This document shows positions 9,923-61,495 of a stretch of 61,706 bases of DNA, piece after piece. How positions within the stretch are numbered: the first letter of the stretch is position 1; the number at the start of each line of letters is the position of its first letter. The position numbers and the translations under genes are program-made. The DNA comes from Candidatus Amesbacteria bacterium GW2011_GWC2_45_19. GTDB lineage: Bacteria; Patescibacteriota; Microgenomatia; CAZETR01; Amesbacteraceae. The notes under the pieces were generated by a model. It was not told the origin of the DNA, searched no databases, and saw only the letters and a program-made list of their open reading frames with translations. Location of the stretch: the NCBI GenBank assembly GCA_001001555.1, contig LCKS01000001.1:18360-80065 (forward strand), given 5' to 3'.

Positions 9923-10098
9923 AAAAAAACTCAAGAAACTTAGTCATTTCTTTAGCAACGGCCGTTCTTTTCAGCTTTTTATTTATTTTTGTGGCCAATA
10001 ACAAACAAGGAGTGGCAACATTTGATATCTCTTTAGGTACGGCATGGGTTTTCCTTTTATCTCTGATCGTCGCCTTATCTTTAGCGCAAAGGAACTAA
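9919..10098 (+). CDS. 59-aa two-TM membrane protein (below the ORF-track cutoff)
   Basis: The ATG at 9919 overlaps the copA stop (ATGA). [59 protein letters not shown], stop 10096-10098. Confidence 0.4.
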
Positions 10099-10100
10099 TT

Positions 10101-30200: not shown

Positions 30201-30391
30201 ATTTTGGAACTAATAACTACGGCGGTCCCTGCCCGCCCTCCGGAACCCACCGCTACTTCTTCAAAATTTTCGCCCTGGACACGATACTTAATCTGCCCTC
30301 TTCCTGTAAACGCGGCGATCTAGACGCCGCTCTTTCTGGCCATATAATTGACAAAAGTGAGTTGATGGGTAAATATTCTCGCAGTGACTGA
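27293..30391 (+). CDS. secA: preprotein translocase ATPase SecA with a C-terminal PEBP/YbhB-family domain fused in frame
   Basis: 1032 aa. DEAD motor (MAAAAFHQGQIAEQKTGEGKT, DEVDSILIDEARTPLIIS), and HWD/HSD domains. The C-terminal Zn-finger start GRNDPCWCKSGKKYK then reads straight into ISSLAIAKGERIPAKYTCDGDNVNPPL...DDPDAP...GTHRYFFK. Confidence 0.9.
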   Translation: MFGFLNKFLDLNQKEIDRLNSRVDQVNSFTAKFKKLKKDEDFAAETAKFKNRLADGATLDELLPEAFAVAREASDRAIGLRPFDVQLMAAAAFHQGQIAEQKTGEGKTLSAVPALYLNSLSGKGAHLVTVNDYLARRDAGWNGPTFYLLGLSVGIIVHEQSFIYDPKYSDPTHGDDRLAHLRPVTRQEAYRADITYGTNNEFGFDYLRDNMVGTLPDMVQRGHHFAIVDEVDSILIDEARTPLIISAPDTEPTQKYYEFAKLVDRLSADTDYVIDEKHRTANLNEAGLSKVEGLLGITNLYEKDFETVHHLENALKARTLFLRDRHYVVRENQVVIVDEFTGRLMPGRRWSEGIHQAVEAKENVVIQQESKTLATISFQNYFRLYAKLAGMTGTAATEAEEFRKIYKLDVIVIPTNRPMIRADHADIVYKTTRAKYSALAEEIGRLHATGQPVLVGTTSIEKNEIVAELLKKKGVPHEILNAKNHEREAQIIAEAGRKEAVVIATNIAGRGVDIILGGRPPESQNKKALAKWQKDHDEVVKLGGLHVIGTERHESRRIDNQLRGRSGRQGDPGSTRFYLALDDDIMRIFGGEQVAKVMTMLKIPEDEPIEHGMVSRSIEQAQIKVEGFNFDARKHVVEYDDVMNKQREIVYGLRKRVLSGAISESEIISNIQSLLSNIVKSYAPRGIVESEVLPIVSALVEIVPFDDDSQKAISQQFKQSVVAEEIITSINQIIADAVTQRKSQVGEEVWKEIIKYAYLSSIDNLWIDHLDAVDDMREGIGLRGYGQRDPLVEYKGEAFSMFERLMAQIDSEFAKRLFRIQVGTQPASTPIPTTNLTTHHPQPSTPSSDNNDFLTAMQSLQKTSAENEHKKLGRNDPCWCKSGKKYKISSLAIAKGERIPAKYTCDGDNVNPPLEISGVPATAQSLVLTVDDPDAPAGIWNHWLMWNIDSQTTHIAEDSVPGGAVVGVNDFGTNNYGGPCPPSGTHRYFFKIFALDTILNLPSSCKRGDLDAALSGHIIDKSELMGKYSRSD
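29953..30391 (+). other. PEBP (YbhB/YbcL, Raf-kinase-inhibitor-like) domain portion of the SecA ORF
   Basis: IPAKYTCDGDNVNPPL, LTVDDPDAPAG, WNHWLMWNI and PPSGTHRYFFKIFAL are the conserved PEBP motifs. The domain is nearly full length. Confidence 0.75.
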
Positions 30392-47617: not shown

Positions 47618-48865
47618 ATGATAAAGTTTTACCAAATGAAGTGGTGGGGAATTGCATTACTGCCTTTCTTTTTTTGTCCACTTAAAATTTATGCCTCGAT
47701 TGGAATAAATGAGTTTCAGGTCGAACCCTCGGGATCAAGTCAATGGATTGAACTTTATAACTCTGGACCTGATTCACAAGATATATCAGGTTGGTTTATT
47801 GACGATGATGGAGGTACAACAAAGTTCACAATTCCCACAAATACAGTATTAACCCCCAATGCTTGTATGTCGTTTCAAAGTGGCAGCTTTTTTTGGAATA
47901 CTGCTTCGGGCGACAAAGCTAGGTTGTTGTCTGGTGACACTATAATTGATGAATACCAATATTCTAGTAGTCCTGGAAATAATGTATCGTTTGGTAGATT
48001 ACCTGACGGAACTGGTGGCTGGACCACTTTCAGTAATCCAAGTAGAGACAAATTAAATAATACTAACACCTCTTGTTTATCTTTACCTACACCCTCACCA
48101 TCTTCAACTCCATTATCAACTCCCTTGCAAACACCAGCTGTTTCCCCGACTCCAACACCCAATGATTACTCAAATTTATCCATTTCAGAATATCTGCCAT
48201 ATCCAGATAGTGGAAATGAATGGGTAGAAATCTATAATGGGAATGATTCTGAAGTGAATTTGTATGGTTGGTTTGTCGATGATGTTGCTGATGGTGGTAG
48301 TGCACCGATAGGCATTTCTGGAACAATCAGCGCCAAAACTTATAAGCAATTTTATTTGTCCGACTCATTTCTTAATAATAGTGGAGACGATGTTCGATTG
48401 TTGAATGGTAGTAAAATTGAAAAAAACAAAACATCATTTTCTGCATCAACTAAAGCGAAATCCTGGTCAAAAGATAGTTCAGGCAACTGGTGTCAAATTG
48501 ATCCAACACCCAATTCCTCCAATCCTAGTTGCCCAACACTCACATCTGCCCCTTCGCCTTCGGCTTCGACAGGCACAAACACCCCCAAACCCAGCCCTAC
48601 TCCAAAATCTAGCTCGACCCCCACCTCTACTCCAACAGCCAAACCCTCTCCCACGCCAAGCATATCACCCCCTACCCTCCCCCCTCTTACTTTAAGAGGG
48701 GGGACCGAGGAGAGTGATATTAAGGAGACTCCGACCGTTCTCTCTTCTTCCACCCAACGCAACATCAATTTCCCAGCCATCGCCCTGATCGCCGTCGGCG
48801 GGATTGTCTTTATCGCCTCCGTAGGCCTTATAATCAGAGGGTATGTCCATCCGCCGCCGGATTAA
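47618..48865 (+). CDS. surface protein with two lamin-tail domains, Pro/Ser/Thr linkers and a C-terminal TM anchor
   Basis: 415 aa. INEFQVEPSGSSQWIELYNSG..ISGWFIDDDGG and ISEYLPYPDSGNEWVEIYNGN..LYGWFVDDVADGG (LTD signature). PTPSPSSTP-type linkers. C-terminal hydrophobic helix. Confidence 0.7.
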   Translation: MIKFYQMKWWGIALLPFFFCPLKIYASIGINEFQVEPSGSSQWIELYNSGPDSQDISGWFIDDDGGTTKFTIPTNTVLTPNACMSFQSGSFFWNTASGDKARLLSGDTIIDEYQYSSSPGNNVSFGRLPDGTGGWTTFSNPSRDKLNNTNTSCLSLPTPSPSSTPLSTPLQTPAVSPTPTPNDYSNLSISEYLPYPDSGNEWVEIYNGNDSEVNLYGWFVDDVADGGSAPIGISGTISAKTYKQFYLSDSFLNNSGDDVRLLNGSKIEKNKTSFSASTKAKSWSKDSSGNWCQIDPTPNSSNPSCPTLTSAPSPSASTGTNTPKPSPTPKSSSTPTSTPTAKPSPTPSISPPTLPPLTLRGGTEESDIKETPTVLSSSTQRNINFPAIALIAVGGIVFIASVGLIIRGYVHPPPD

Positions 48866-49223
48866 ACATTGGCTACCCACTCTGGCCTGGGCAATTCTCA
48901 TTTTCTCCTTTTCCTCTCAACCCACGCTCACCGCCAACCAAGTTTACTGGCAGGACTTCGTTATCAAAAAATCTGCCCACCTCTTCGTTTACGCTGTCCT
49001 GGCGATACTAATTTACCGCTCGCTCAAACTTACCTCCCGCTTTTCCAAATTATACTTATTCCTTTTCACTTTAATTCTAGTAGTCTTATACGCCGTTTCT
49101 GATGAATTCCATCAAACTTTCAGTCTCGGTCGCACTCCCACCCTGCGCGATGTCTTCATTGACATCGCCGGGGGTTTGACAGGACTTATAGTAAAGACTA
49201 AAATCGGCTCCAGTGCCCCTTAA
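48843..49223 (+). CDS. VanZ-family membrane protein
   Basis: 126 aa. Four TM helices and an SDEFHQ motif. Confidence 0.7.
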   Translation: MSIRRRIKHWLPTLAWAILIFSFSSQPTLTANQVYWQDFVIKKSAHLFVYAVLAILIYRSLKLTSRFSKLYLFLFTLILVVLYAVSDEFHQTFSLGRTPTLRDVFIDIAGGLTGLIVKTKIGSSAP

Positions 49224-52200
49224 GAAGCTTTTCAGCTTCCTGCTCTCCTTCCTCCTTCTTTTCCAAGGCAATGCTTCCTATCTGGTAGCTTTTGCCCAAG
49301 AAGCCACCGAATCTGCTACCCAAACCGTTGTTGAACCAACTCCAACCCCCACCCCTTCGTCCACCCCTGCCCCCGAGCCGACTTTGGACCCCAATCTTAT
49401 TCCGATTCCTGTCCCCACCCCTATCCCTGAATGGCAGACAATTGATGGCGTGGACATCACTACTAGCCCGATCACTGAAGGTCACGCATATCGATTCCGG
49501 GACACAGCAGTCACGGTGACTTTTACCAAAGTCACTCAGTCCGCCCCTCTCAGAATAAAAGAAGTCCAAGTTGGTGACGCCACGGGCTACGACATTACTT
49601 CAGACATGCCCGACGGGAGTTTTATATACGACTTGACACTTCCTAACCCTAATCCAAACCAAGAAGCCAAGGTCCAGTATTCTGAAGACGGCCAAACTTA
49701 TCAAGAATTGCCAGCGGAAGAACAAAACAACATTTTTGTTATCAAGAATCTGGACCATTTCACTATTTTTATAGTCCGCCCAGATACTCCAACAGATGAT
49801 GGTTCGTCTACTACTAATGATTCTTCCGGAGGAACGGTCTGTGTGGTAGGTTCCGGCTCAAACAATTGTTACCAAACTATCCAAGCTGCTGTAGACGCTG
49901 CGTCCGCTGGTGACCAGATTAAAGTAGCGGATGGAACATATTCGGATCCAGTCTCCATCGATAAACCTGGACTGACCATTTCTTGTTCCGGTACCGGCGC
50001 GGAAATCAATACTAATGGAGACATAGGCCTTTCTCTTCTGCCTGGCGCGGACAACACTACCATTGAAAACTGTTTAATTACCGGAAATGGTGACGGCATC
50101 AATTTAAACGGCGTGACCGGAACCACTATCCGCAATAATTCCATTACCGACAATTCCTACGTTACTAGTGGCATTTACATCATCGACTCTTCAAGTGTCA
50201 CCATTTCCAACAACACCATTTCCAACAACCAGATGGGGATAGACATTACTGAAACAGAAGAGGGAAATTCGTCAGATATTGTCATCAGCGGCAATATTTT
50301 TGATTCCAACAGTGATTACAATATTTTTAACAACTCTGTCAGTGAGGTAACAGCTACCGGCAATGACTGGATGACTACTGACGGCTCAATTGTCAAAGAA
50401 TATATTTACGATTACCTAGACGACGAATTTCTGGGCTTAGTTTCCTACGACACTACCGACCCAGTTGCCAACGCGGGACCTGACGTAGTAACTGGTTTGG
50501 AATTTGTCCAAGACGGATCGGGAAGCAGTGACGAGTACAAAATCGACACTTACTCCTGGTCCCAAACCTCCGGTCCCGGGACTGTCATTTTCGGATCGCC
50601 CGACTCCGATTCCACAACAATCTCAGCGGATATTGACGGTGATTACACCATTGAGTTAATAGTCACCGATTATCAGGGTAATTCCAACACTGATGAGTTT
50701 TTGCTAACATGGGACACAACCGCTCCGGTTTTAGCTGAAGTAACCCCTGTTTCTACGCCTACTAATAACCCCACCCCCGGCTATACGTTCAATTCCGATG
50801 AAAGCGGAAGTATTTCATATGGGGGATCCTGTTCCAGCGTTACAAGCTCTGCGGCCGCGGTAGATAATACGATAACATTCAACTTCCTGCCAGACGGGAC
50901 ATATTCAGACTGTACGATAACAGTTACTGATTCGGCTGGAAATCCAAGTGATCCTTTAAGCGTGAGTACTTTCACTGTTGATACTCAAGATCCTGTTTCT
51001 TCATTTAGTTCTCCTGCCGATGGCAGTTTTTGGAACGAGCCAATTGAAATTTCCGGAAGTTCGACTGATGTCCCAGATACAACTGTTGATTACGTTACTT
51101 TATCTTATTCCATCTCAGGAGAAGATGATTGGTATGAGATAACTGAAATCACAAACGACTCTTTAGACGAGCCTTTTAACTGGAATTATAATTGGGAGCC
51201 GGAAGATGGTGAGGACATCTACGATATCATGGCTGAGGCTACCGATACGGCGGGAAATACTGAATCAAGTCCAGTTGTGGAGGAAGTGACCTATGACGTT
51301 ACGGGGCCTTCCGTAACCGATATATCAATTTCTCCTGATCCTACCAATCATGCTCCATCAATCCTGGCATTGGCAGAAGATTTTTTGAGTATAATCGCTT
51401 CGGCGATTTTCCAAGTCGACGATTCGGACTTTAGCGATCCGTTGCCGCTCTCTGCCTTCGACGGTGACTTTGATTCTCTCTCTGAATATTTTTTTGCCGA
51501 CGAATATAACGGCATGCCTTATCCTGGTGAAGGACTTCATACCTTATATGTTGGAGCATATGATTTTGCGGGAAATTTCGGTTTTAACTTTGCCTCTTTT
51601 ACAGTAGACACATTCTCTCCGGAATCTTCTTTTAGTTCACCTGCAGAAGGAAGTATTTGGAGCTCATCAATCGATATATCAGGCTCATCCAACGATGAGA
51701 CAGAGGATACTGTTGATTATGTTCAACTTTTCTATAGAGAATCAGTAGGAGAGGATGAAGAAGAAAATGAATGGACAGAAATTGATACCGATTTCGAGAA
51801 TGGAGGTACGCAGCCCTTACAAAATACAGGAGGCGGCAATCCTTTTGAATGGAACTTTGATTGGACTCCTTCAAGCGATGGAACTTTTGACATAAAAGCT
51901 GAAGCGACTGATACGGCAGGCAACACCGAAACGAGTCCGGTGGTAGAAAACATAACGTATGATACTACCGCACCTACAACGCCAGTCGCCGACCCAGCGG
52001 CAGGTGATTATATGAGTGACCAATCGGTGACTTTGGCTAGTTCCGACAGCTTGAGCGGTGTGGATAAGATTTACTACACGACGGACGGCTCCACGCCGGA
52101 CAAGACTAAAACGGAATACACCGGTACCCCAATCACGGTAGACAAAGACATGACAATTAAAGCCATTGCCTACGACAAGGCCGGTAACGCTAGCGATGTT

Positions 52201-53082
52201 TTGGAAGCAGTTTATGGAATTGCGCCAAAAATATCAGCAGAAGCTTCCTCAGAGGTAACGTCAACATCTACAACCATCACTTGGACCACAGATGATCCTT
52301 CGACGTCTCGCGTGATTTATGATATGGTATCACACGGAGAACTTGGAGCCGCACCAAATTATGGTTACGCAAATTCGACAGTAGAGGATTCAACGAAAGT
52401 TACGGCCCACAGCGTAGATATAACCGGGCTGACAGCGGGGACCACTTATTATTACAGAACCATTTCCCACGGATCGCCGGAAGCGGTTAGTGAAGAAAAG
52501 AGCGTTACAACTACCTCCTCTTCCTCTTCTTCCAGTTCCAGCAGTAGTGGAGGAAGCGGAACGTCAGCAGCCAGCGCTCCTTCCTGCAACGATACCAAGC
52601 CTGGTAGCGCTCCGGTTCTTCTGTCTGCTGTCTCTGCAGGAGCCAATAGCGTCACCTTAACTTGGTCCAAGGCAACCAGCCCGGTGACCTATTATTTAAT
52701 AGCTTACGGCTTGGGAACGGGTCAGCAACAGTACGGAAATCCGAATGCGGGTGATTCTAATACCACGTCTTATACAGTTTCCGGCTTATCCGGAGGAACA
52801 ACGTATTACTTTAAAGTCAGGGCCGGTAATGGTTGCGCTCCTGGAGAATTCTCAAATGAGCTGTCGGTCAGACCTACCGGCGGTGTAGTTACCGCCGTTC
52901 CAGAGGGCTTTGCGGTAGGGGTTTTGGGAGAAAGTATTGAAGAAGTAAAAACCGTTGAACCTACCCCCTCTCCGGGAATCAAAGGGATTAGCACCCCCAA
53001 CTTCAATTGGTGGCTGATCATCATCCCCACCGCACTTTTGGGTCTCCTTATCTCTGGACTTCTGCTCCGACGTCGCACATAA
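49213..53082 (+). CDS. giant (1289 aa) surface protein: signal peptide, right-handed beta-helix, PKD/Ig-like modules, FN3 modules, poly-Ser linker, C-terminal TM plus RRRT tail
   Basis: Parallel beta-helix repeats (NTTIENCLITGNGDGINLNG..IRNNSITDN..ISNNTISNNQMGIDI). Two tandem Ig-like modules ending ..EATDTAGNTE(S/T)SPVVE. FN3 modules (TTYYYRT.., TTYYFKVRAGNGCAPGEFSNE). Tail WWLIIIPTALLGLLISGLLLRRRT. Confidence 0.75.
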   Translation: MPLKKLFSFLLSFLLLFQGNASYLVAFAQEATESATQTVVEPTPTPTPSSTPAPEPTLDPNLIPIPVPTPIPEWQTIDGVDITTSPITEGHAYRFRDTAVTVTFTKVTQSAPLRIKEVQVGDATGYDITSDMPDGSFIYDLTLPNPNPNQEAKVQYSEDGQTYQELPAEEQNNIFVIKNLDHFTIFIVRPDTPTDDGSSTTNDSSGGTVCVVGSGSNNCYQTIQAAVDAASAGDQIKVADGTYSDPVSIDKPGLTISCSGTGAEINTNGDIGLSLLPGADNTTIENCLITGNGDGINLNGVTGTTIRNNSITDNSYVTSGIYIIDSSSVTISNNTISNNQMGIDITETEEGNSSDIVISGNIFDSNSDYNIFNNSVSEVTATGNDWMTTDGSIVKEYIYDYLDDEFLGLVSYDTTDPVANAGPDVVTGLEFVQDGSGSSDEYKIDTYSWSQTSGPGTVIFGSPDSDSTTISADIDGDYTIELIVTDYQGNSNTDEFLLTWDTTAPVLAEVTPVSTPTNNPTPGYTFNSDESGSISYGGSCSSVTSSAAAVDNTITFNFLPDGTYSDCTITVTDSAGNPSDPLSVSTFTVDTQDPVSSFSSPADGSFWNEPIEISGSSTDVPDTTVDYVTLSYSISGEDDWYEITEITNDSLDEPFNWNYNWEPEDGEDIYDIMAEATDTAGNTESSPVVEEVTYDVTGPSVTDISISPDPTNHAPSILALAEDFLSIIASAIFQVDDSDFSDPLPLSAFDGDFDSLSEYFFADEYNGMPYPGEGLHTLYVGAYDFAGNFGFNFASFTVDTFSPESSFSSPAEGSIWSSSIDISGSSNDETEDTVDYVQLFYRESVGEDEEENEWTEIDTDFENGGTQPLQNTGGGNPFEWNFDWTPSSDGTFDIKAEATDTAGNTETSPVVENITYDTTAPTTPVADPAAGDYMSDQSVTLASSDSLSGVDKIYYTTDGSTPDKTKTEYTGTPITVDKDMTIKAIAYDKAGNASDVLEAVYGIAPKISAEASSEVTSTSTTITWTTDDPSTSRVIYDMVSHGELGAAPNYGYANSTVEDSTKVTAHSVDITGLTAGTTYYYRTISHGSPEAVSEEKSVTTTSSSSSSSSSSSGGSGTSAASAPSCNDTKPGSAPVLLSAVSAGANSVTLTWSKATSPVTYYLIAYGLGTGQQQYGNPNAGDSNTTSYTVSGLSGGTTYYFKVRAGNGCAPGEFSNELSVRPTGGVVTAVPEGFAVGVLGESIEEVKTVEPTPSPGIKGISTPNFNWWLIIIPTALLGLLISGLLLRRRT

Positions 53083-53091
53083 TAATCCTTG

Positions 53092-53271
53092 ATGTGGAAA
53101 TTCCTGCGCCATCTGTTTTTTCCTCACGAATCCAATAATCAGCGGGCCAAAATCTTGCATCCCTCCGGCCTGGCTTTAATAATCGGTATCTTCGTCGTCT
53201 TCCAACTAACCATTTTCTGTCCGGGTTCAGGGCAGATAAGGGGCAGCTTCACTTTTGGTAGGGTAATGTAG
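53092..53271 (+). pseudogene. displaced 5' fragment of a CAP-domain gene (paralogous to the start of 60644-61495)
   Basis: MWKFLRHLFFPHESNNQRAKILHPSGLALIIGIFVVFQLTI compares with MLKFLRHLFFPHDSNNQRAKFLHPSSLVVTIGLFIVFQVTINQLTI. It then diverges and stops. Confidence 0.7.
53098..53213 (+). repeat. left copy of a diverged direct repeat bracketing the island
   Basis: aaattcctgcgccatctgttttttcctcacgaatccaataatcagcgggccaa...tcttccaactaaccat aligns with 60650-60780. I count roughly four-fifths identity by eye. The right copy carries a 12-nt internal duplication. Confidence 0.75.
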
Positions 53272-53289
53272 TATAATCCCATAGTTAAT

Positions 53290-53313
53290 TAGCCCAAGAT
53301 GGGCTAGTTTTTT
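53290..53313 (+). promoter_or_regulatory. leader hairpin plus U-run directly before the ATG at 53317
   Basis: TATAAT at 53272-53277, then TAGCCCA-aga-TGGGCTA (53290-53306), GTTTTTT, act, ATG. No Shine-Dalgarno. Confidence 0.45.
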
Positions 53314-53316
53314 ACT

Positions 53317-54132
53317 ATGGGCAGAAAATTTTTTATTACATTTGTATTATTGCTTTTATCCTTTTTCCTCGCTCCACGACCGATATATGCTGTTAGCACT
53401 GAAACTTGTGAAGACAACAGTCCCACAGGCAAGCCGGTGCTCACTTCAGCCGTACCAGGAAAAGATAGTGTCACACTAACCTGGACAGAAGCTCAAGATC
53501 CAGTAACCCATTATCTTATTGCTTATGGTAGATCAGAAACAGAAATAGAGTATGGTAATCCGAATGTAGGAGGAAGAAGAACCACTACCTATACAGTTGG
53601 CGAGCTCACAAAAGGAGTGAAATATTATTTTAAGGTACGTCCTATAAACGGTTGTAGACCAGGTGATTTTTCAAATAAACTTCCTGCAACTCCCGGTGTT
53701 ATTGTTAAATCTGGTGTTACTAGGGGAAGAGTTGCAAATATACCCAATTTATCAATTTATAAACCAGTACTTGGAGCAAGTGTATCAGCAACATCTTCAG
53801 CAAAGGTGGAGGTAAAAACACTAGCTCCTTCAGCTATAACCGTCGCCAAATGTACAATGTGTATAAGTTGGCAATTATTAATTACAGAAGCAATACTTTT
53901 GATCTTGTTTTTCTATCTTGCAGAGAAAAATACTTTCTTAAAGCCAATTTTTTCCATAGCGATTCCAACCGTAATATATATTTTGTTTTGGGAGATTAAC
54001 CAAGCATGTCCGCAAAATGGATTTGCCTGTAAATATTTCCTTCCACTTGAAGTAATCATCTTTATAGTTATTGAAATTGCTTACAAAAACATAAGCTATA
54101 AAACAAAGGAAAGAAAGAATAACTTATGTTGA
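53317..54132 (+). CDS. signal-peptide FN3-module protein with a multi-TM C-terminal region
   Basis: 271 aa. The FN3 module CEDNSPTGKPVL..VTLTW..HYLIAYG..YYFKVRPINGCRPGDFSN is paralogous to modules at about 52576-52880 and about 59676-59960. The C-terminal half has 2-3 TM helices. It overlaps the synthase start. Confidence 0.65.
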   Translation: MGRKFFITFVLLLLSFFLAPRPIYAVSTETCEDNSPTGKPVLTSAVPGKDSVTLTWTEAQDPVTHYLIAYGRSETEIEYGNPNVGGRRTTTYTVGELTKGVKYYFKVRPINGCRPGDFSNKLPATPGVIVKSGVTRGRVANIPNLSIYKPVLGASVSATSSAKVEVKTLAPSAITVAKCTMCISWQLLITEAILLILFFYLAEKNTFLKPIFSIAIPTVIYILFWEINQACPQNGFACKYFLPLEVIIFIVIEIAYKNISYKTKERKNNLC

Positions 54133-57038
54133 ATACAATAATCAATAATGTTGGGTTTATCTTTAACAGTGCCGCCTTTTATTCTCAGCAATATTTTGAT
54201 AGATACTCATTTTTAGTTCCTCTTGGAGTAATCGGAATATGGCGATGGTCTGTCTGGATGATAAAAGAGGTTATTGGGCTTCATTACCGTCCTAAAACAA
54301 AGGAATATAATGCAAAAGTCTCCTTGGTGATTCCTGTCTATAATGAGAATCCGCAAGTATTTACACAAGCTCTTAACTCGTGGAAGAAAAATAATCCATC
54401 AGAGATAATTGCGGTAATTGACTATACGGATTTGACGTGCATTGAAATTTTTAAGAAATTTAAAGAGACCTTTTCGGGTGCTAAACTTATTATTACTAAA
54501 ACTCCCGGGAAACGGCCGGCTTTAGCAGATGGGATTAAAGTTGCAAAAAGTGAAATTGTAGCCTTGGTTGACAGTGATACAATTTGGGATGATAATGTTT
54601 CAAGAAATGGTCTTCCCCCTTTTGTTGATCCTAAAGTGGCAGGGGTTGCTACATACCAAAGCGTTTTGCAGCCTAAAACTTTTGCACAAAAAGTTTTTGA
54701 TATACAGCTTGATTTGAGATATAGACATGAGTATCCATTCTTAGCCGCTTCGGGAGATGCTCTTGTTTGCCTCTCTGGGAGAACGGCATTTTACAGGCGT
54801 GAAGTTATTACTCCCATGCTTTCTGATTTAGTAAATGAGAAGTTCATGGGAGTACCGGTTATTAGCGGTGATGATAAAAGATTGACATACCTTGTGCTCG
54901 CAGCAGGATGGAAGGTTGCTTATCAAAGTACATCTCACGTTTATACGCCTGGGATGGCAGAACTGGGTGCATACCTTAAACAAAGACTGCGTTGGACAAG
55001 AAACAGTCTTCGTGCTGATTTGTCAGCAATCTTTAACGGATGGCCTATTCGGCATCCCGCTCTTCTCTTTTTTCAAATTGATAAGTTCCTTCAGGGCTTT
55101 GTGGTAATTTTAAGCCCCATTTATTTCTTTGTATCGATCTATCTTCATCTATGGATAGCTGCGTTCGCAATTTTTTGTTGGTGGTTTATCAGTAGAACTA
55201 TAAAGTTGTATTATCCCCACCTTTCTTATAAGCCCAAAAATATTGTTATTTTACCCGGATATGTGCTCTATACATTTCTTGCCGGGATACTTAAAATTTA
55301 TGCACTTTTTACACTCAATACTCAAGGCTGGATAACACGCTGGGATAAATCAAGGTTACCTCAGTTTAGATTACTTCTAGCGGCCCCTTCCTATCTTGCT
55401 ACTTTATCAGTTGTCTTGTTTCTTACATATGGAGTTTATATTTATAAAGAACACACATATTTAATTCCAAAATCACAAAGAGAACAATTGCTGGCAAGTG
55501 CTTTGCCCAGTATTCAAGCAGATGTTATTGCAAGTAGCGCAGTTTTAGGAGAATCAACATTAGCCCAAAAGGAGTTGTTTACTAATCGCTATGAAGCAAA
55601 AGGAAACGAAAATTTTATCGAGATATCCAATAAATTCGGAGTTGATGTAAACCAATTATATTATGCAAATATGGCCAAAGCACCAAATAGAAATATTACA
55701 CCAGGGACAATTTTATCAATCCCAGGAAAAGATATTCAACTACAACCAAATACTTCTCTTACCAAACTAACATATTCGACTAACCCTATAACCGTCCAAC
55801 ATGATAAAAAAACAAATACTCTTCTGGTTACAGGAAGGGGTAGGCAGATAACTCTAAAAGATATTGTGAGCAATGGAGGGAAGAGTTATTTAGAAGAAAT
55901 TTCATCAAAAATCTGGCTTGCAAAAGCTACAATTTTTCTTTCGGACGGTATTACTTTGAGGCTTGACAAAAACGAAGTAGAATGGCTTAAACTCGAGAGT
56001 AATAAAAAAGGATTTGTAATGCTTCGTTCTCTAAATAGCGACATTATTATTAACGGAGTAAAAATAACTTCTTGGGATACCGAAAACAATGATTACGATA
56101 AAGAACTCAAGGATGGAAGAAGTTTTATTATGGTAAAGGATAATTCAAGAATGGATATTTATTCATCCGAGCTTTCTTATTTAGGTTATCCAACTTCGTC
56201 AGATATTGCCGCATCTCCTTACGGTGTTTCTTGGAAGCTAAGTAACCTCAAGTTAAAAAAAGAACTTCTTACTGGAGAAGTTATCAACAGTAAATTCCAC
56301 CATAATTATTTTGGTGCTTACACTTATGGGGCAACTGGTATGCTGTGGAAGGGAAATGAATTTTATGAAAATGTAAGGTATGGGCTTGACCCCCATGATG
56401 ATTCCAATGGTTTTTTGGTGGAAGATAACATTGCCAGAGATAATGGTTCGCATGGTATTATTTTTTCGAAACGCAGCATGTACAATACGGTTCGTAATAA
56501 TATCTCCTACAATAATAAATTGCACGGGATAATGCTTCATGAAAAATCTGACTTTAATATAATTGAAAATAACACCGTAACCGGCAATACAAGCGGAATT
56601 GCCCTCTATCGTTCAAGTAACAACATTGTTCGCAACAACACCATAGCAAACAATAGACATGGAGTAAGGGCAAATGCAGGTTCAGAGGGTAACATTGTGC
56701 AGAATAACAGCATAACGGGAAGTGGATTATATGGAATTTATTTCTATGATAAGGCGAATAACAATTCTGTTTCAAATAATACATTTGAATATAACGACGT
56801 AGGAATTTATATTAAATCAGACTCAAATAATATTAGTAAGAATTCTTTAATAAATAATGCTGTTGGAGTTTACTTCCAAGATCAAGCTTCGAACAATGTC
56901 TTAGCTGACAATCAAATTAAGCAAAGCGGTATTTATGGAATTTATACAAAAGTTGCCAACGAAGTGAGCAATATTCTTGGGGTCAACGATTTATATAGAA
57001 ATCGTAAAGATGTGGCAGGGATGAACGAAGCAGATTAA
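54126..57038 (+). CDS. processive GT2 polysaccharide synthase (Alg8/HasA/NodC-like) fused to LysM and a right-handed beta-helix, C5-epimerase-like (AlgG-like) domain
   Basis: 970 aa. LVIPVYNE, VDSDT, SGDDKRLT, QRLRW (54981-54995). Several TM helices. LysM module (IEISNKFGVDVNQLYYAN...GTILSIPG). Beta-helix repeats (NNISYNNKLHGIMLH..IENNTVTGNTSGIAL..VRNNTIANNRHGV..) with a DPHD motif (56388-56399). Confidence 0.7.
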   Translation: MLNTIINNVGFIFNSAAFYSQQYFDRYSFLVPLGVIGIWRWSVWMIKEVIGLHYRPKTKEYNAKVSLVIPVYNENPQVFTQALNSWKKNNPSEIIAVIDYTDLTCIEIFKKFKETFSGAKLIITKTPGKRPALADGIKVAKSEIVALVDSDTIWDDNVSRNGLPPFVDPKVAGVATYQSVLQPKTFAQKVFDIQLDLRYRHEYPFLAASGDALVCLSGRTAFYRREVITPMLSDLVNEKFMGVPVISGDDKRLTYLVLAAGWKVAYQSTSHVYTPGMAELGAYLKQRLRWTRNSLRADLSAIFNGWPIRHPALLFFQIDKFLQGFVVILSPIYFFVSIYLHLWIAAFAIFCWWFISRTIKLYYPHLSYKPKNIVILPGYVLYTFLAGILKIYALFTLNTQGWITRWDKSRLPQFRLLLAAPSYLATLSVVLFLTYGVYIYKEHTYLIPKSQREQLLASALPSIQADVIASSAVLGESTLAQKELFTNRYEAKGNENFIEISNKFGVDVNQLYYANMAKAPNRNITPGTILSIPGKDIQLQPNTSLTKLTYSTNPITVQHDKKTNTLLVTGRGRQITLKDIVSNGGKSYLEEISSKIWLAKATIFLSDGITLRLDKNEVEWLKLESNKKGFVMLRSLNSDIIINGVKITSWDTENNDYDKELKDGRSFIMVKDNSRMDIYSSELSYLGYPTSSDIAASPYGVSWKLSNLKLKKELLTGEVINSKFHHNYFGAYTYGATGMLWKGNEFYENVRYGLDPHDDSNGFLVEDNIARDNGSHGIIFSKRSMYNTVRNNISYNNKLHGIMLHEKSDFNIIENNTVTGNTSGIALYRSSNNIVRNNTIANNRHGVRANAGSEGNIVQNNSITGSGLYGIYFYDKANNNSVSNNTFEYNDVGIYIKSDSNNISKNSLINNAVGVYFQDQASNNVLADNQIKQSGIYGIYTKVANEVSNILGVNDLYRNRKDVAGMNEAD

Positions 57039-57130
57039 ATGATACTTGCACCTTTTTTAAAAAAGTGTAACATACCATAACATACATCTTCATCTAGCTG
57101 CCCCAGGGTGAATTTCTAAGAGGAAATAAT

Positions 57131-58042
57131 ATGATAAAACCATCAATTTGTATTGTAGGTCCTGGAATTGTTGGGCAAGCAACGGGGAAAGTTTTGGTAG
57201 AAAAGGGAGTAAGGGTGGGTTTTTTGGGAATTGTAAAAGAACAAATTGAAAAATTAAAAAAAGAGAGTTACAACGCATTTACAAAGGATGAGATTCTTAA
57301 CGGGAGTTATGATTTTGACATAACAATGTTTACTGTCCCGACTTTCACAGTGAATGGAAGAATTGACCTAAGTATCCTTGAACAAGCATCGGTGGATTTG
57401 GGAAAGCGCCTTAAACACTTCAGGAAATATCATTTAGTTGTAGTTAAAAGCACTGTTCTCCCGGGCACAACAGAAGATCTTGTTATTCCTACAATAGAGA
57501 AATACTCAGGTAAAAAGGTCGGAAAAGACTTCGGTGCGTGCATGAACCCCGAATACCTTCGACAAGAAACTTCTTATAACGATACCCTAAATCCCTGGAT
57601 AATTTTAATTGGAGAATACGATAGGAAATCCGGTGACAGGCTTGAATTGATATATAAAAATAAATTCGATTGTCCATTGTTCAGGTGCGAAATTAAAGAG
57701 GCCGAAATGCAAAAATATATCCACAATATTTTTAATGCAACAAAAATTACCTACTTCAACGAAATGCGTCAAATTGCAAATAACCTGTGTATCAATGCCG
57801 ATAAAATCTTCAAATATTCCGCGATAAGTTGTGAAGGAATGTGGAACCCAAACTATGGAATAAAGAACAAGGGACCATTTGACGGGAGCTGTCTTCCGAA
57901 AGACATACAGGCGTTTTGTTTTTGGGCACAAACCAGTGGGTTTAACGCGTCTTTATTAAAAACAGTTATTGATGTAAACAATAAACTTGCTAGCAAGCTA
58001 GGTCTTCACGAATTCAGCTTCAAAAGCAGAGATATCTTATAA
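57131..58042 (+). CDS. UDP-glucose/GDP-mannose 6-dehydrogenase-family enzyme, short form (303 aa)
   Basis: ICIVGPGIVGQATG Rossmann motif, VVKSTVLPGTT, MNPEYLRQE, and catalytic-Cys motif DGSCLPKD. It ends before the usual C-terminal nucleotide-sugar-binding domain. Confidence 0.7.
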   Translation: MIKPSICIVGPGIVGQATGKVLVEKGVRVGFLGIVKEQIEKLKKESYNAFTKDEILNGSYDFDITMFTVPTFTVNGRIDLSILEQASVDLGKRLKHFRKYHLVVVKSTVLPGTTEDLVIPTIEKYSGKKVGKDFGACMNPEYLRQETSYNDTLNPWIILIGEYDRKSGDRLELIYKNKFDCPLFRCEIKEAEMQKYIHNIFNATKITYFNEMRQIANNLCINADKIFKYSAISCEGMWNPNYGIKNKGPFDGSCLPKDIQAFCFWAQTSGFNASLLKTVIDVNNKLASKLGLHEFSFKSRDIL

Positions 58043-58069
58043 AGGTATAATTTGCTTATCTAGCCCGCA

Positions 58070-58963
58070 ATGCGTTATAAAATTAAGGTAATGAATACTG
58101 AGCAACCCCCGGACAATTTATTGAAAGGGCATAAAATTCCTTTGTGGCTCATGGCATCTATTTTGCTGATTTTTATAGCCATAATTATTCGTTTTATTTC
58201 CCCAAAAGTATATTTGGAGACTAATACAAATGTGGTCGATACAAATTCTACCAAGAAACCAGCGCCCTCATTACTACCTACTGAAGTTATCTACCCCTCA
58301 CAAGTACTCAATCTCACTAATTGGAAAATAACAATCCCAACTATTACTTCCGGAGATGCAATAGAAATAAAACAGCCGCGATTGGCAACTTACAACCTTA
58401 ATCCTTGGTTTACAGTTTTGCCAGAAGAAAACGCAGTACGTTTTAGGGCTGCGGTGAATGGTGCAACGACAAGCGGTTCAGGTTATCCCCGCTCAGAGCT
58501 TAGAGAAATGGTCGACAATGGCAAGACAAATGCGAGCTGGCCCTCGAATGAAGGAACACATACTATGTTTTTAGACCAAGCAATCACTGCTGTACCAAAA
58601 ACCAAACAAGATGTAGTAGCGGGGCAAATTCACGATAACAACAAAGACATTATTGTGGTGCGACTTAATTATCCCACTCTTCACGTCAGGATTGATAGAA
58701 CAAACGTCTATACATTAGATTCTAACTATACGCTTGGAAAAAGATTTACTGTTAAGTTTGTAGTTAGCGATGGTTTGACCAAAGTCTATTACAACAACGG
58801 TATTGATCCTGTATATACTCTTAACAAAAGATATTCAGACGCTTATTTCAAAACAGGTGTTTACACTCAGTCAAATTGTAGTAAGGAAGGTTCTCCCTCT
58901 CTCTGTAATGACAACAACTATGGTGAAGTCATTGTTTATCAAGCAGCGGTCACGCATCAGTAA
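58070..58963 (+). CDS. membrane-anchored polysaccharide lyase family 7 (alginate/polyuronate lyase)
   Basis: 297 aa. N-terminal TM helix. The three PL7 signature blocks are present: YPRSELRE, AGQIHD, AYFKTGVYTQS. Confidence 0.75.
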   Translation: MRYKIKVMNTEQPPDNLLKGHKIPLWLMASILLIFIAIIIRFISPKVYLETNTNVVDTNSTKKPAPSLLPTEVIYPSQVLNLTNWKITIPTITSGDAIEIKQPRLATYNLNPWFTVLPEENAVRFRAAVNGATTSGSGYPRSELREMVDNGKTNASWPSNEGTHTMFLDQAITAVPKTKQDVVAGQIHDNNKDIIVVRLNYPTLHVRIDRTNVYTLDSNYTLGKRFTVKFVVSDGLTKVYYNNGIDPVYTLNKRYSDAYFKTGVYTQSNCSKEGSPSLCNDNNYGEVIVYQAAVTHQ

Positions 58964-58984: not shown

Positions 58985-59013
58985 TTGACAAATTAAAAAC
59001 CGTACAATATAAT
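58985..59013 (+). promoter_or_regulatory. consensus sigma70 promoter
   Basis: TTGACA (58985-58990), exactly 17 nt, TATAAT (59008-59013). Confidence 0.7.
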
Positions 59014-59018
59014 GCCTC

Positions 59019-59052
59019 AATTAACTGCCCTAAGGGCAGTTAATTGTTTTTA
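59019..59052 (+). promoter_or_regulatory. 12-bp perfect leader hairpin plus U-run directly before the ATG at 59056
   Basis: AATTAACTGCCC-taa-GGGCAGTTAATT (59019-59045), then GTTTTTA, tac, ATG. It starts about 6 nt after the -10, so it would be 5'-terminal on the mRNA. No Shine-Dalgarno. Confidence 0.5.
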
Positions 59053-59055
59053 TAC

Positions 59056-60096
59056 ATGAAAAAATTATTGACGGCTTTATTCTTAATAGTTTTTGCGGCA
59101 GGTTTACTCTTTATAAAACTCTCCCCTACTCTTGTAAAAGCAGATACAGGAGCGCCCGTAACAATAACAGCTACATACAATTCAAGTACAGGACAATTAA
59201 ATGCTTCAGGCTCCTATGCTTGGGAGGAATGTGAACCCGGCGAAGAGACAAACATTCTAGGATTTGCCCTTTTTATAAATGGCGGAACTCCTGCCATTAA
59301 TGATAGTAATGCTTTAGATGGATCCTCAATGCACCTTGCAAATAGTGGAAATCCTTGCACAACAACACCCGATAATTGGGTAGACAATAATCATGTTTTA
59401 TCTTCTGCCCCCGCAAATGTTTGTGTTGTTGTTTATGATGTAAGAGTTGACGATTCGGCGGATCCAGGAGGTATTCATTCTTTAATCGGAGCAGGCGGGG
59501 ATTATAATACAGATAATTCTTGGAATTTCAATGGCAGCTCTTATCTGGAAGGGTCTTGTACTGCTCCAGAAGTTATAACACCGACAGAAACACCCACGCC
59601 TGCTCCTACTCCAACACCCACGCCGACACTCTCATTGAGTAATGGTCCAATTGGTGGCTCTAATGGAGGCGGATCAACTCAATGTACCGATGCTAAACCG
59701 GGAATACCGGGATTACTTTCTGTAAACAAGAATAGCTCCTCTACTGCCGTTTTGGCTTGGTCACTAGTTTCGTCTGCCACAGATTACTCTATCCTATATG
59801 GTCTATCTTCTGGAAACTATATCTACGGAGTGCCAAGGACAGGGAATACTGATCACTACACTGTTGGCAGTTTGAATCCTGGTGTCAATTACTACTTTGC
59901 CGTAAAGGCTGTAAATGGGTGCACTCCCGGAGATCCTTCAAATGAGAGATCCACAGGATCAGATAGAGGCCAAGTGTTGGGAGCTTCAACTATGGCTGCC
60001 ACTGGAATTGCAGATCAGCTGGTAATGGTAACGGTGTTAGTAATGGGAGTATTGATAACAGTAAGATCGGGGTATGCGTACGCGAAGGCAAAGTAG
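59056..60096 (+). CDS. secreted protein: unknown Cys-containing N-domain, PT linker, FN3 module, C-terminal TM plus basic tail
   Basis: Start moved to MKKLLTALFLIVF. TPTETPTPAPTPTPTPT linker. FN3 module CTDAKPG..VLAW..YSILYG..YYFAVKAVNGCTPGDPSN. Tail VLGASTMAATGIADQLVMVTVLVMGVLITVRSGYAYAKAK. Confidence 0.65.
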   Translation: MKKLLTALFLIVFAAGLLFIKLSPTLVKADTGAPVTITATYNSSTGQLNASGSYAWEECEPGEETNILGFALFINGGTPAINDSNALDGSSMHLANSGNPCTTTPDNWVDNNHVLSSAPANVCVVVYDVRVDDSADPGGIHSLIGAGGDYNTDNSWNFNGSSYLEGSCTAPEVITPTETPTPAPTPTPTPTLSLSNGPIGGSNGGGSTQCTDAKPGIPGLLSVNKNSSSTAVLAWSLVSSATDYSILYGLSSGNYIYGVPRTGNTDHYTVGSLNPGVNYYFAVKAVNGCTPGDPSNERSTGSDRGQVLGASTMAATGIADQLVMVTVLVMGVLITVRSGYAYAKAK

Positions 60097-60634
60097 GCAC
60101 CTGGTAAGAATGGCAGTGGGGATAGTAATTGTGGTGTTTTCGATTTGGTATCTAGGTTACAGCCAGGGAGTTTTATCATTTAAAACTACACCTCGGGAAA
60201 CTGTAAAAACAGTAAGGTCAAGTCCGCCAGCAGAATTAAAAATACCTAATGCTAAAATAGATTTAAGACTAGACGGAGGTATAATTGAGAACGGAATTTG
60301 GCAAATTTCAGCTAAGGGTGGGTCGTATCTGGTCACAGGGGCTTATCCGGGTGAGGGGGGGAACATAATAATTTATGGACATAACAAATGGAATATTTTG
60401 GGTAGACTAAAGACTGTCACAAAAGGCCAGGCGATAATATTGGTAACTCAGGAGGGAAAAGAGCATAAATATCAAGTAGAAAATGTAATGGTGGTGAGTC
60501 CAAATGAAATAGAAGTAGTTGAACCAAGAAATAATGAGATATTAACAATCTATACGTGTACGGGGTTTTTGGACAGGTTGCGATTTGTGGTAGTAGCCAC
60601 CCCCATTGACTCTGAAATACAAAAGCCGCAATAA
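60074..60634 (+). CDS. sortase-family transpeptidase
   Basis: 186 aa. TM anchor. Catalytic His (NIIIYGHN), Cys (LTIYTCTG) and Arg (RLRFVVVA) in canonical order. Confidence 0.8.
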   Translation: MRTRRQSRHLVRMAVGIVIVVFSIWYLGYSQGVLSFKTTPRETVKTVRSSPPAELKIPNAKIDLRLDGGIIENGIWQISAKGGSYLVTGAYPGEGGNIIIYGHNKWNILGRLKTVTKGQAIILVTQEGKEHKYQVENVMVVSPNEIEVVEPRNNEILTIYTCTGFLDRLRFVVVATPIDSEIQKPQ

Positions 60635-60643
60635 TGGGTAGTA

Positions 60644-61495
60644 ATGCTCAAATTCCTGCGCCACCTGTTTTTTCCTCACGACTCCAATAATCAGCGGGCC
60701 AAGTTTCTTCATCCTTCATCCCTGGTTGTGACCATCGGTCTTTTTATCGTCTTCCAAGTAACCATCAACCAACTAACCATCAACTACCCGCAAATATTAG
60801 GTTACGCTTCCCAGATATCCCCCGAAGAAATAATTCGCTTGACCAATATTCAACGCACATCCTCTGGCCTATCTGAAGTCGAACTGAATTCTCAACTTTC
60901 CGCCGCCGCCGCCCAAAAAGCCGCAGATATGATTGCCCGTGATTATTGGGCTCATGTCTCGCCCGTAGGCACCCAGCCCTGGAACTTTATTACCCAGGCC
61001 GGCTACTCTTACCGCTATGCCGGTGAAAACCTGGCCCGGGATTTTTCCGACGCCAAATCCGTCGTCGACGCTTGGGTAGCTTCTCCTTCGCACCGGGAAA
61101 ATCTGCTCAATTCCCGGTATCAGGACATTGGAATAGCTGTTATCGATGGCCAACTTGAAGGCCGGGAGACCACTCTGGTGGTGCAATTTTTTGGCGCTAA
61201 ATTATCTGCCGCCCCCAGCGTGAGTTCAGTTTCTACTTCCATTGTCAAACCGGTCTCCGCCGCCACCTCTCCGTCTACTATGAACTATGAACCAAGAACT
61301 ATTTCTCCCTTTGATGTGACGAAGGCCGTTTCTCTGACACTGCTCATCATTTTTGTGACCGTTTTAGTTATCGACCTGGTAGCTGTGTATCAAAAGAAGA
61401 TCACCCGCTGGACCAGTAAAAGTTTTGCTCATCTGTTATTTATGTTAGCCTTATTAATAGCCGCCTTTATTATTTCCAAAGGCCAAATACTATGA
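60644..61495 (+). CDS. CAP/SCP/PR-1-like (YkwD-type) domain protein with N- and C-terminal TM helices
   Basis: 283 aa. LSAAAAQKAADMIARDYWAH...YAGENLA...VDAWVASPSHRENLL...IGIAV. Confidence 0.75.
   Translation: MLKFLRHLFFPHDSNNQRAKFLHPSSLVVTIGLFIVFQVTINQLTINYPQILGYASQISPEEIIRLTNIQRTSSGLSEVELNSQLSAAAAQKAADMIARDYWAHVSPVGTQPWNFITQAGYSYRYAGENLARDFSDAKSVVDAWVASPSHRENLLNSRYQDIGIAVIDGQLEGRETTLVVQFFGAKLSAAPSVSSVSTSIVKPVSAATSPSTMNYEPRTISPFDVTKAVSLTLLIIFVTVLVIDLVAVYQKKITRWTSKSFAHLLFMLALLIAAFIISKGQIL
60650..60780 (+). repeat. right copy of the direct repeat bracketing the island
   Basis: See 53098-53213. Confidence 0.75.

Follow-up and report, generated by a model that had tools for sequence, protein, structure and literature searches.

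How might a bacterium with a small genome and no outer membrane make an acidic exopolysaccharide of the alginate type? The classical alginate machine consists of about 12 proteins and spans the cell envelope; here two to four genes would have to suffice. The question is raised by positions 53,317 to 58,963 of a 61,706-nucleotide stretch of DNA (the window) from Candidatus Amesbacteria bacterium GW2011_GWC2_45_19 (contig LCKS01000001.1), where four adjacent genes had been proposed, in a reading of the letters alone (the sequence-only reading), to form a module for the synthesis, modification and cleavage of a polyuronate. The window, which encodes SecA, Lon, LysRS, SerRS, RF, FtsX and BipA, is an ordinary chromosomal stretch from a bacterium with a small genome, and the locus is present in an identical copy in a 2015 groundwater metagenome-assembled genome (MAG; GCA_001000075.1) and in several metagenomes. 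We propose that these genes specify a minimal, synthase-dependent system for an alginate-like, epimerised polyuronate in a cell that lacks an outer membrane. The product is predicted, and we place the probability of this interpretation at roughly 0.55; we hold it somewhat less probable that the polymer consists specifically of mannuronate and guluronate, a manno/gulo identity that we infer. The direct support consists of domain families, conservation of catalytic residues, structural similarity and gene linkage. The four open reading frames (ORFs) lie on the same strand, at exactly the positions that had been claimed for them:

53317..54132, + strand, 271 amino acids (aa): protein with an FN3 domain and transmembrane (TM) helices, the FN3-TM partner (ORF list; Pfam fn3)
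54126..57038, + strand, 970 aa: putative synthase-epimerase fusion (Pfam, NCBIfam, PDB, AlphaFold2 [AF2] and Foldseek)
57131..58042, + strand, 303 aa: short NDP-sugar-dehydrogenase-like protein (PF03721 and PF00984 only)
58070..58963, + strand, 297 aa: membrane-anchored polysaccharide lyase of family 7 (PL7; Pfam Alginate_lyase2)

The stop of the first gene and the start of the second overlap by 7 nt (ATGTTGA). Pfam bears out the family that had been assigned to each product (fn3; Glyco_tranf_2_3 with LysM and Beta_helix; UDPG_MGDP_dh_N with the central domain; Alginate_lyase2), and all of the motifs that had been quoted were recovered, at residues 68-74 (VIPVYNE), 149-152 (DSDT), 248-254 (GDDKRLT), 286-290 (QRLRW) and 752-758 (YGLDPHD) of the fusion and at 141-145 (RSELR), 186-188 (QIH) and 259-267 (YFKTGVYTQ) of the lyase. 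For three of the four enzymes (epimerase, lyase and dehydrogenase) the nearest characterised relatives belong to alginate metabolism; the fourth is a synthase of the hyaluronan synthase (HAS)/NodC type with an Alg8-like arginine.

Are these genes linked by more than proximity? Relatives of the fusion were sought in one genome per GTDB species and are encoded in 298 species genomes; 76 loci were retrieved, 57 of them with flanks. Carriers within the Candidate Phyla Radiation (CPR) include Levy-, Woese-, Curtiss-, Roizman- and Daviesbacteria, WWE3, and Moran-, Falkow-, Nomura-, Staskawicz- and Taylorbacteria, and those outside it include Chloroflexota (Ardenticatenaceae and Caldilineaceae). The host is a CPR bacterium, as had been supposed, but the module is not a one-off. 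In 48 of the 57 flanked loci no more than 700 bp separate the short dehydrogenase gene from the synthase (about 52 by manual check with a 1.5-kb window), and in L023, L052 and L079 this gene is carried on another locus of the same MAG. Because dozens of independent genomes show these same neighbours, the arrangement is not due to chance, and because the synteny is conserved, the genes are functionally linked. The module as proposed had four members, but the unit that is conserved has only two: short dehydrogenase and synthase-epimerase are the core, the depolymerase is exchangeable, and the PL7 lyase and the FN3 protein are lineage-limited accessories.

This exchange of depolymerases is evident in the counts. 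A PL7 homologue occurs in 23 of the 76 loci (about one third); 22 loci (L013, L059, L033 and 19 more) have, immediately after the synthase or the dehydrogenase, a gene for an anchored beta-helix protein of some 400 aa that shows a faint signal of PL6/Chondroitinase_B, and 12 have a BNR propeller. At least one of the three is present in 49 of 76 loci, and the beta-helix protein or the propeller often replaces or accompanies PL7. A full-length homologue of the FN3-TM partner ends no more than 60 bp from the synthase start in 21 of 76 loci (27 loci with looser clustering), and its family is found only in Microgenomates-type loci, where the synthase is about 49% or more identical to that of the window. 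In several Parcubacteria-type genomes (among L060-L062, L072, L073, L078, L083 and L085) the glycosyltransferase family 2 (GT2) and beta-helix parts are encoded by separate adjacent genes, and tandem duplicates exist in some genomes. The fused beta-helix of L060-L062 has lost DPHD and is followed by a second beta-helix gene. A few loci have genes for membrane acyltransferases of the Acyl_transf_3 type near the synthase (L009, 11273-12253; L028, 16693-17724), which could O-acetylate the polymer. Many MAG records with such a CPR-type locus bear the title "uncultured Gammaproteobacteria" or "Bdellovibrionales" (L013-L015, L019-L021, L056, L063 and others), and their taxonomy is apparently mislabelled.

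What, then, does the core encode? Its larger member, the 970-residue fusion, has the following parts:

54207-54281, + strand: N-terminal TM helix
54303-55034, + strand: cytoplasmic GT-A domain
55056-55502, + strand: HAS-like membrane channel helices
55584-55721, + strand: LysM domain
55791-57026, + strand: AlgG-like right-handed beta-helix
56379..56399, + strand: codons of YGLDPHD (aa 752-758), the AlgG-type catalytic motif, aligned to YGIDPHD of Pseudomonas syringae AlgG

Pfam matches the fusion to Glyco_tranf_2_3 (9e-28) and Beta_helix (9e-53). The LysM domain is marginal in Pfam (20.0 bits, with the cutoff at 20.9); a family-profile search recovers it, with matches to Ecp6, LytE and SafA, and it shows a beta-alpha-alpha-beta fold at aa 487-532 of the AF2 model. 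This model, built with 40 homologues (pLDDT 87.8), gives the order N-terminal TM helix, GT-A domain (60-300), interface helix bearing QRLRW, channel helices, LysM and beta-helix (556-967), with helices at 280-303, 311-339, 343-366, 370-395 and 415-459. Foldseek ranks AlgG first (target-normalised TM-score 0.73), then HAS at about 0.6 (7sp7/8smp), then BcsA and chitin synthases; by sequence, the PDB matches are AlgG (4ozz, 7e-36) and HAS (1e-15). Invariant in the 40 homologues are PVYNE (70-74), D99, DSD (149-151), GxDK, Q286/R289/W290, Y752, D755, H757, D758, K782 and R783, and QxxRW together with G[DE]DK is found in all 78 related ORFs. The loops at 47-62, 355-372 and 395-416 are presumably cytoplasmic, since they are rich in lysine and arginine. 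The GWITRW loop, which follows helix 370-395, aligns with the cytosolic WGT(R/S) loop of HAS, and since a single TM helix (415-459) leads outward after it, the LysM and beta-helix domains are predicted to lie outside the membrane. This placement is derived from homology to HAS and from the positive-inside rule rather than from the coordinates of the model.

The beta-helix had been likened to AlgG, and AlgG does rank first both by sequence and by fold, above NosD or lyases. Residues 574-881 align with P. syringae AlgG (4ozz; 7e-36, 29% identity over 302 aa), and the score of 127 bits with the single sequence becomes 157 bits with a 40-sequence profile, under which AlgE4/6 reaches only 41 bits and NosD 29. 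NosD or a hydrolase had been named as the competing identity; with 157 bits for AlgG against 29 for NosD, and with PL6 and PL1 unmatched, we rejected a NosD-, pectate-lyase- or PL6-like domain. In the alignment, Y752-G-L-D755-P-H757-D758 falls on Y314-G-I-D317-P-H319-D320 of AlgG, with the Tyr, Asp, His and Asp invariant in the 40 homologues, and of the 79 beta-helix ORFs in related loci, 71 contain YG[LIFV]DPHD. In AlgG the histidine abstracts the H5 proton and Tyr314 positions the water that acts as proton donor; the characterised AlgG-type beta-helix epimerases all act on mannuronan (PMC4444821). Epimerisation would be the expected outcome here, rather than lyase cleavage.

Which kind of synthase feeds this domain is a separate question. 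That the GT2 is a processive synthase with the D, DSD, GDD and QxxRW motifs stands; a particular likeness to Alg8, one of four synthases that had been named as sharing this signature, does not, with 56-73 bits for Alg8 as opposed to 122-233 bits for NodC, HasA and actinobacterial GT2s. Since NCBIfam at E<=10 yielded no Alg8 model match for the GT2 (and no cellulose-synthase match), Alg8 sequences for the comparison were taken from algD-alg8 metagenome loci, located by means of a degenerate DNA pattern of the AlgD active site; plasmids supplied HasA, NodC and unannotated relatives. The family-profile scores were as follows:

Streptomyces GT2: 233 bits
Curtobacterium GT2: 208 bits
Lactococcus plasmid glycosyltransferase (GT): 178 bits
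Bacillus cereus HasA: 134.5 bits
NodC: 122 bits
CvHAS: 85 bits
Alg8: 56-73 bits
BcsA: 22 bits

In a neighbour-joining tree the GT2 domains of CPR and Chloroflexota group in a clade by themselves, with Alg8 on the branch farthest away. From the low profile scores and this position in the tree we conclude that the GT2 is not an Alg8 orthologue. Identity to Alg8 is 22-23%, and the motifs differ (GDDKSSW/FRWYGN in Alg8, GDDKRLT/QRLRW here); identity to B. cereus HasA is 27.6% and to NodC about 25-27%. The best NCBIfam model is NodC, at 98 bits far under its cutoff, and the nearest solved structures are HAS. Membership of class I HAS itself is not indicated: the collar reads SGR and not SGP, the loop GWITRW and not GWGTR, and HAS-specific family models are unmatched. 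Grouping with chitin or cellulose synthases, which the sequence-only reading had set as the outcome that would speak against it, was not found, and we rejected it: BcsA scores 22 bits, and chitin synthases are seen by fold only, at lower rank. Names offer little guidance, as nearly none appear among the cluster members of distant representatives, "hyaluronan synthase" occurring just twice.

There is also a local feature, at the acceptor site. In CvHAS the segment C267-x-x-G270 contacts the acceptor N-acetylglucosamine (GlcNAc) (PMC11750622). The corresponding segment is C-L-S-G-R219(T) in the CPR/Chloroflexota clade, T-L-T-G-R(M) in Alg8 and C-L-P-G-R in the actinobacterial relatives, whereas HasA, NodC and the GT of lactic acid bacteria (LAB) have C-S-G-P, with proline where the clade has arginine. 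The arginine is found in 69 of 78 GT2 ORFs of related loci. Arg219 may bind the carboxylate of an acidic acceptor and, as one local feature, points to Alg8-like chemistry; the switch from proline to arginine may serve as a sequence marker for GT2 synthases that polymerise uronates.

Outside the clade, the sister GT2s of Curtobacterium, Lactococcus/Enterococcus and B. cereus are likewise paired with dehydrogenases. The closest stand-alone relatives sit in small uncharacterised operons: plasmid pTCL of Curtobacterium sp. TC1 (L207, 5917-10488) carries a GT2, an enzyme of glycoside hydrolase family 26 (GH26, the mannanase family) and a full-length dehydrogenase resembling GDP-mannose dehydrogenase (GMD), and a Lactococcus plasmid (L210, 1105-3522) carries a dehydrogenase and GT pair of a kind found on dairy Lactococcus and Enterococcus plasmids. 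In B. cereus the arrangement is hasA-galU-dehydrogenase. Fusions of dehydrogenase to GT2 (Rosetta stone proteins) were also considered and discarded: among eight over-length GT2 representatives, Pfam identified TIG or beta-helix extensions and none with a dehydrogenase.

The second member of the core, the dehydrogenase, is the most puzzling element of the system and potentially the most novel. It had been called an analogue of AlgD or HasB; it is indeed nearer to AlgD than to UDP-glucose dehydrogenase (UGDH), but the sequence-only reading had not noticed that the C-terminal nucleotide-sugar-binding domain is missing. Only the NAD-binding and the central catalytic/dimerisation domains are present (PF03721 and PF00984; PF03720 unmatched), and the protein ends about 20 aa past the latter. 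Its alignment to TIGR03026 covers positions 2-296 of 413, at 179.3 bits under the cutoff of 189.8. Among the 120 of 1307 matches that were listed, its relatives are of 228-349 aa and have PF03721 and PF00984 without PF03720; the synthase-adjacent dehydrogenases of 60 related loci are of 223-344 aa, and the solved relatives all have at least 377 aa. A stand-alone copy of the C-terminal domain was found neither in the window (six-frame translation) nor in 85 related loci, with five C-terminal domains as queries, the sole match in these loci being an unrelated full-length UGDH in L057. A split gene with its C-terminal domain nearby was rejected on this ground. We rejected a pseudogene or assembly artefact as well, since the short form recurs in the relatives listed, lies beside the synthase in CPR and Chloroflexota loci and has invariant catalytic residues: GxGxxG (G10/G12/G15), ST108, NPE141xLR, K195, N199 and C254-LPKD258 are conserved in 31 sequences from Microgenomates to Chloroflexota.

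By sequence the dehydrogenase is closest to GDP-mannose dehydrogenase (AlgD). Its best PDB match is the GMD 1mfz (1.5e-39, 139 bits), as compared with 105 bits for the best UGDH, and a profile of the short dehydrogenases gives 203-220 bits for GMDs of alg operons, 173 bits for the hasB UGDH and less for others. The fold is less discriminating. The AF2 model (pLDDT 82.9) reproduces the first two domains of relatives (query-normalised TM-score about 0.8) and matches UGDHs as well as GMD, with the UGDH 3vtf ranked first by Foldseek; the best NCBIfam equivalog match is the archaeal UGDH AglM. How a UGDH/GMD-family enzyme might work without its nucleotide-sugar-binding domain is a question for enzymology that this module raises. 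One speculative answer, which we think unlikely though worth stating, is that the short dehydrogenase docks on the synthase, so that the nucleotide, GDP-mannose or UDP-glucose, is held by the GT-A domain, and the dehydrogenase either oxidises its C6 there or passes the product on directly; this would explain the loss of the domain. If it were true, the dehydrogenase and the synthase-epimerase would be all that is required to turn a neutral sugar nucleotide into an epimerised alginate-like polymer, which would be the first alginate-type pathway beyond Proteobacteria and brown algae and a new coupling of oxidation to polymerisation.

The two accessories of the window may be described more briefly. 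The call of a PL7 lyase proved sound: Alginate_lyase2 (PF08787) is matched at 1.7e-38 (133 bits, cutoff 29.7), and the nearest relatives are G-specific alginate lyases; the polyguluronate lyase 1uai matches at 6.6e-60 (217 aa aligned, 49% identical) and AlgAT5 at 2.5e-57. A TM helix at 25-43 precedes a catalytic domain at about 75-297, and the QIH block goes with a preference for G. The FN3-TM partner (Pfam fn3, 2e-10) has an N-terminal signal or anchor, a single FN3 domain on the extracytoplasmic side and, towards its C-terminus, three hydrophobic helices, with hydrophobic segments at 5-23, 181-199, 206-224 and 236-254.

These elements may be joined in a simple scheme. The cytoplasmic GT-A domain would polymerise uronate, with the adjacent short dehydrogenase supplying the C6 oxidation, and the protein's own HAS-type channel would thread the chain outward. 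Because the LysM and beta-helix would be outside, directly past the last TM helix, the emerging chain could be C5-epimerised (mannuronate to guluronate) at the Tyr752/His757 site on its exit, the LysM probably tethering the beta-helix domain to peptidoglycan. The anchored PL7, of the G-preferring type, would trim or release the polymer, as AlgL does in Pseudomonas, and the FN3-TM protein would be an accessory particular to its lineage, possibly a membrane partner in the manner of BcsB or Alg44. For a cell that has no periplasm bounded by an outer membrane, it is reasonable that the epimerase should be fused to the synthase on its exit side.

Several observations weigh against this scheme. The polymer product is a prediction. 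The nearest characterised relatives of the GT2 make polymers that contain GlcNAc. The dehydrogenase is without the domain that binds the GDP or UDP moiety in solved relatives and no separate copy was found, so that the supply of GDP-mannuronate or UDP-glucuronate is unexplained; genes of the GDP-mannose and UDP-glucose pathways were likewise not found among the scanned ORFs of the window. In the beta-helix, the carboxylate-neutralising Arg345 of AlgG aligns with Lys782, which is followed by Arg783 (both invariant), and the AlgG equivalog model NF038177 scores 137.3 bits against a cutoff of 700, covering model positions 121-426 of 519. Sites of the AlgG type can act as lyases too, for example in AlgE7 (PMC4444821). 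Finally, PL7 is missing from about two thirds of the loci.

In view of these points, other interpretations must be weighed. The same architecture might make a different polyuronate, such as a beta-1,4-glucuronan or a mixed uronate built from UDP-glucuronate, with the beta-helix converting glucuronate to iduronate or acting on another uronate. HasA and NodC, the relatives of the GT2, use UDP-sugars, the dehydrogenase fits UGDHs in fold and has AglM as its best equivalog, and PL7 includes some glucuronan lyases. We nevertheless regard this as quite unlikely: by sequence and profile the dehydrogenase is nearer to the GMDs of alg operons, the PL7 resembles a G-specific alginate lyase and carries QIH, the sister operon in Curtobacterium has a GH26 enzyme, and AlgG-type epimerases that have been characterised act on mannuronan (PMC4444821). 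Very unlikely, in our judgement, is an analogue of the has operon (HasA with HasB) that makes a hyaluronan- or chitin-like GlcNAc polymer, the LysM binding this product and the beta-helix serving as a processing lyase or hydrolase. It would account for the rank of HasA and NodC as the nearest characterised GT2s and of HAS as the nearest structures, for database entries that call some homologues "hyaluronan synthase", for the hasA-hasB-like adjacency of synthase and dehydrogenase, and for a LysM domain, a type that binds GlcNAc glycans (cf. the Ecp6 and LytE matches). However, the C-x-S-G-P collar by which HAS contacts GlcNAc is changed to G-R as in Alg8, the beta-helix retains the catalytic set of a uronate epimerase, the affinities of PL7 and dehydrogenase point to alginate, and neighbour clustering of the loci revealed no GlcNAc-pathway or galU genes.

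The outer domains might, alternatively, be degradative, with the beta-helix and PL7 cleaving alginate-like polymers of a host or the environment for attachment or feeding, while the GT2 makes an unrelated polymer and the short dehydrogenase is non-catalytic or of different specificity. CPR bacteria are commonly episymbionts, AlgG/AlgE-type sites can be lyases, as in AlgE7, the depolymerase-like neighbours vary (PL7, the 400-aa beta-helix protein, the BNR propeller), and a truncated dehydrogenase may fail to bind a nucleotide sugar. This explanation seems highly doubtful to us, since in most lineages the beta-helix is covalently joined to a processive synthase on the side where the chain exits, and in others is encoded beside the synthase, and hence should act on the synthase's own product; the catalytic residues of the dehydrogenase are invariant across CPR and Chloroflexota; and lyases within the cluster are normal in alginate biosynthesis.

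We therefore return to an alginate-like, epimerised polyuronate and to what it would mean. Among bacteria, alginate production is known in Pseudomonas and Azotobacter (PMC4444821), and a systematic 2020 survey of synthase-dependent exopolysaccharide operons distinguished five systems, with alginate mostly in Pseudomonas plus atypical operons in environmental bacteria (PMC7112194). No description of a system like the present one was found in the literature searched on alginate or hyaluronan synthases in CPR, Patescibacteria, Microgenomates and Chloroflexi. If our interpretation is true, polyuronate or alginate-like matrices extend to lineages without the classical components of outer-membrane export, the module is a concrete candidate for a capsule or adhesive of ultra-small, probably host-attached groundwater bacteria, and a minimal, single-polypeptide synthase-epimerase is available for the engineering of tailored alginates.

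How did the module come to be in this genome? That it might be an island is plausible here. The third-position GC content (GC3) of the module genes is 0.25-0.36, as opposed to 0.52-0.59 in housekeeping genes of this genome, and the block of low GC3, which spans 53.3-60.6 kb, includes the genes for a sortase and an FN3 surface protein as well. At its edges stand the two copies of a direct repeat of 116 nt (82% identity, spacing 7552 nt). These features, with the hairpins and the downstream genes, are:

53098..53213, + strand: upstream copy of the direct repeat, 116 nt, a truncated 5' fragment of a CAP-domain gene, at the left edge of the low-GC3 block
53287..53309, + strand: terminator-like hairpin, 10-bp stem and T-run, just 5' of the first gene of the module
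59018..59046, + strand: strong terminator-like hairpin, 13-bp stem and T-run, 55 nt past the PL7 stop
59044-60096, + strand: FN3 surface protein with a C-terminal anchor (fn3 4e-9, GC3 0.31)
60074-60634, + strand: sortase (Pfam Sortase 1e-19, GC3 0.35)
60650..60765, + strand: downstream repeat copy, within the 5' end of an intact CAP-domain gene (60644-61495; Pfam CAP 3e-17), at the right edge of the block

A 60-codon ORF at 53089-53271 mirrors the N-terminus of the 60644-61495 product, and the direct repeat resembles an insertion scar. In most other genomes the GC of the module equals that of its flanks, and the family is thus resident in these phyla; the present copy looks laterally acquired. 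The closest relatives are 81% identical and are labelled Levybacteria, Woesebacteria and generic Patescibacteria. The hairpin at 59018..59046 is likely to be the 3' end of a four-gene transcription unit, and a perfect TTGACA-17-TATAAT lies at 58985-59013. Scans for promoters and terminators gave counts that were not above those of shuffles; the two strongest hairpins are suggestive by position only.

The FN3 surface protein and the sortase (59044..60634) are passengers, often near in related loci and outside the conserved core; a sortase occurs in 14 of 76 loci. Three neighbouring surface proteins (49213-53082, 53317-54132 and 59044-60096) have nearly the same FN3 module, YYFKVRxxNGCxPGxFSN, and after it a linker and one or more hydrophobic C-terminal anchors; a sortase gene is adjacent. 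The one of 1289 aa contains beta-helix, PKD, Big and CHB_HEX_C domains as well. The product of 47618-48865 has two lamin-tail domains, long Pro/Ser/Thr linkers and a C-terminal TM anchor, and its GC3 is low (0.35). Elsewhere in the window, 27293-30391 encodes a SecA (1032 aa) with a PEBP/PBP domain (PF01161) at aa 898-1028, C-terminal to the SEC-C motif, which is an unusual fusion. A protein with ATP-cone, Mrr_cat (restriction-endonuclease-like) and AF1548-like C-terminal domains is encoded at 10044-10910 and is flanked by genes for heavy-metal P-type ATPases (7625-9922 and 10907-13063).

It remains to compare the module with known systems. It resembles the class I HAS operons (hasA-hasB-hasC; hasA-galU-ugd of B. 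cereus and of B. anthracis pXO1) and NodC in its GDDxxLT, QxxRW and WGTR-like loop, in having HAS as the nearest solved fold and in pairing the synthase with a nucleotide-sugar dehydrogenase. It differs from these operons in its SGR rather than SGP collar, in the single C-terminal TM helix that leads to a large extracellular LysM and beta-helix, in the lack of galU/hasC, in a truncated, GMD-like dehydrogenase and in the presence of epimerase and lyase. The actinobacterial and LAB pairs of GT2 and dehydrogenase contain the closest stand-alone GT2s (178-233 bits), coupled in Curtobacterium to a polymer-cleaving enzyme as well; unlike the module they have full-length dehydrogenases and neither a fused beta-helix/LysM nor PL7, and they are themselves uncharacterised. 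The cps3D-cps3S genes of pneumococcal type 3 are a comparable pair of GT2 and dehydrogenase. With the secreted AlgE-type mannuronan C5-epimerases of Azotobacter and their brown-algal counterparts the module shares the right-handed beta-helix and the YG(F/I)DPH(D/E) motif, although those are much more distant (41 bits), Ca-dependent, equipped with R-modules and free as secreted enzymes. From the alginate system of Pseudomonas and Azotobacter it departs in a GT2 that is not an Alg8 orthologue, in the fusion of epimerase to synthase, in a PL7 in place of their PL5 lyase, in a dehydrogenase without the GDP-sugar-binding domain and in its CPR and Chloroflexota hosts. Alg44 (the PilZ co-polymerase), AlgK, AlgE, AlgX, AlgI/J/F and AlgA, some of which had been said to be missing, were not seen among the scanned neighbours in the window or the recurrent neighbour clusters of the 76 loci, with no dedicated search and no Alg-specific queries. 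Yet it is with this system that the module has in common a dehydrogenase closest to AlgD, a processive membrane GT2 with the G-R acceptor motif of Alg8, an AlgG-type C5-epimerase that would act on the polymer and keeps the Tyr/Asp-Pro-His-Asp residues, and a lyase within the cluster.

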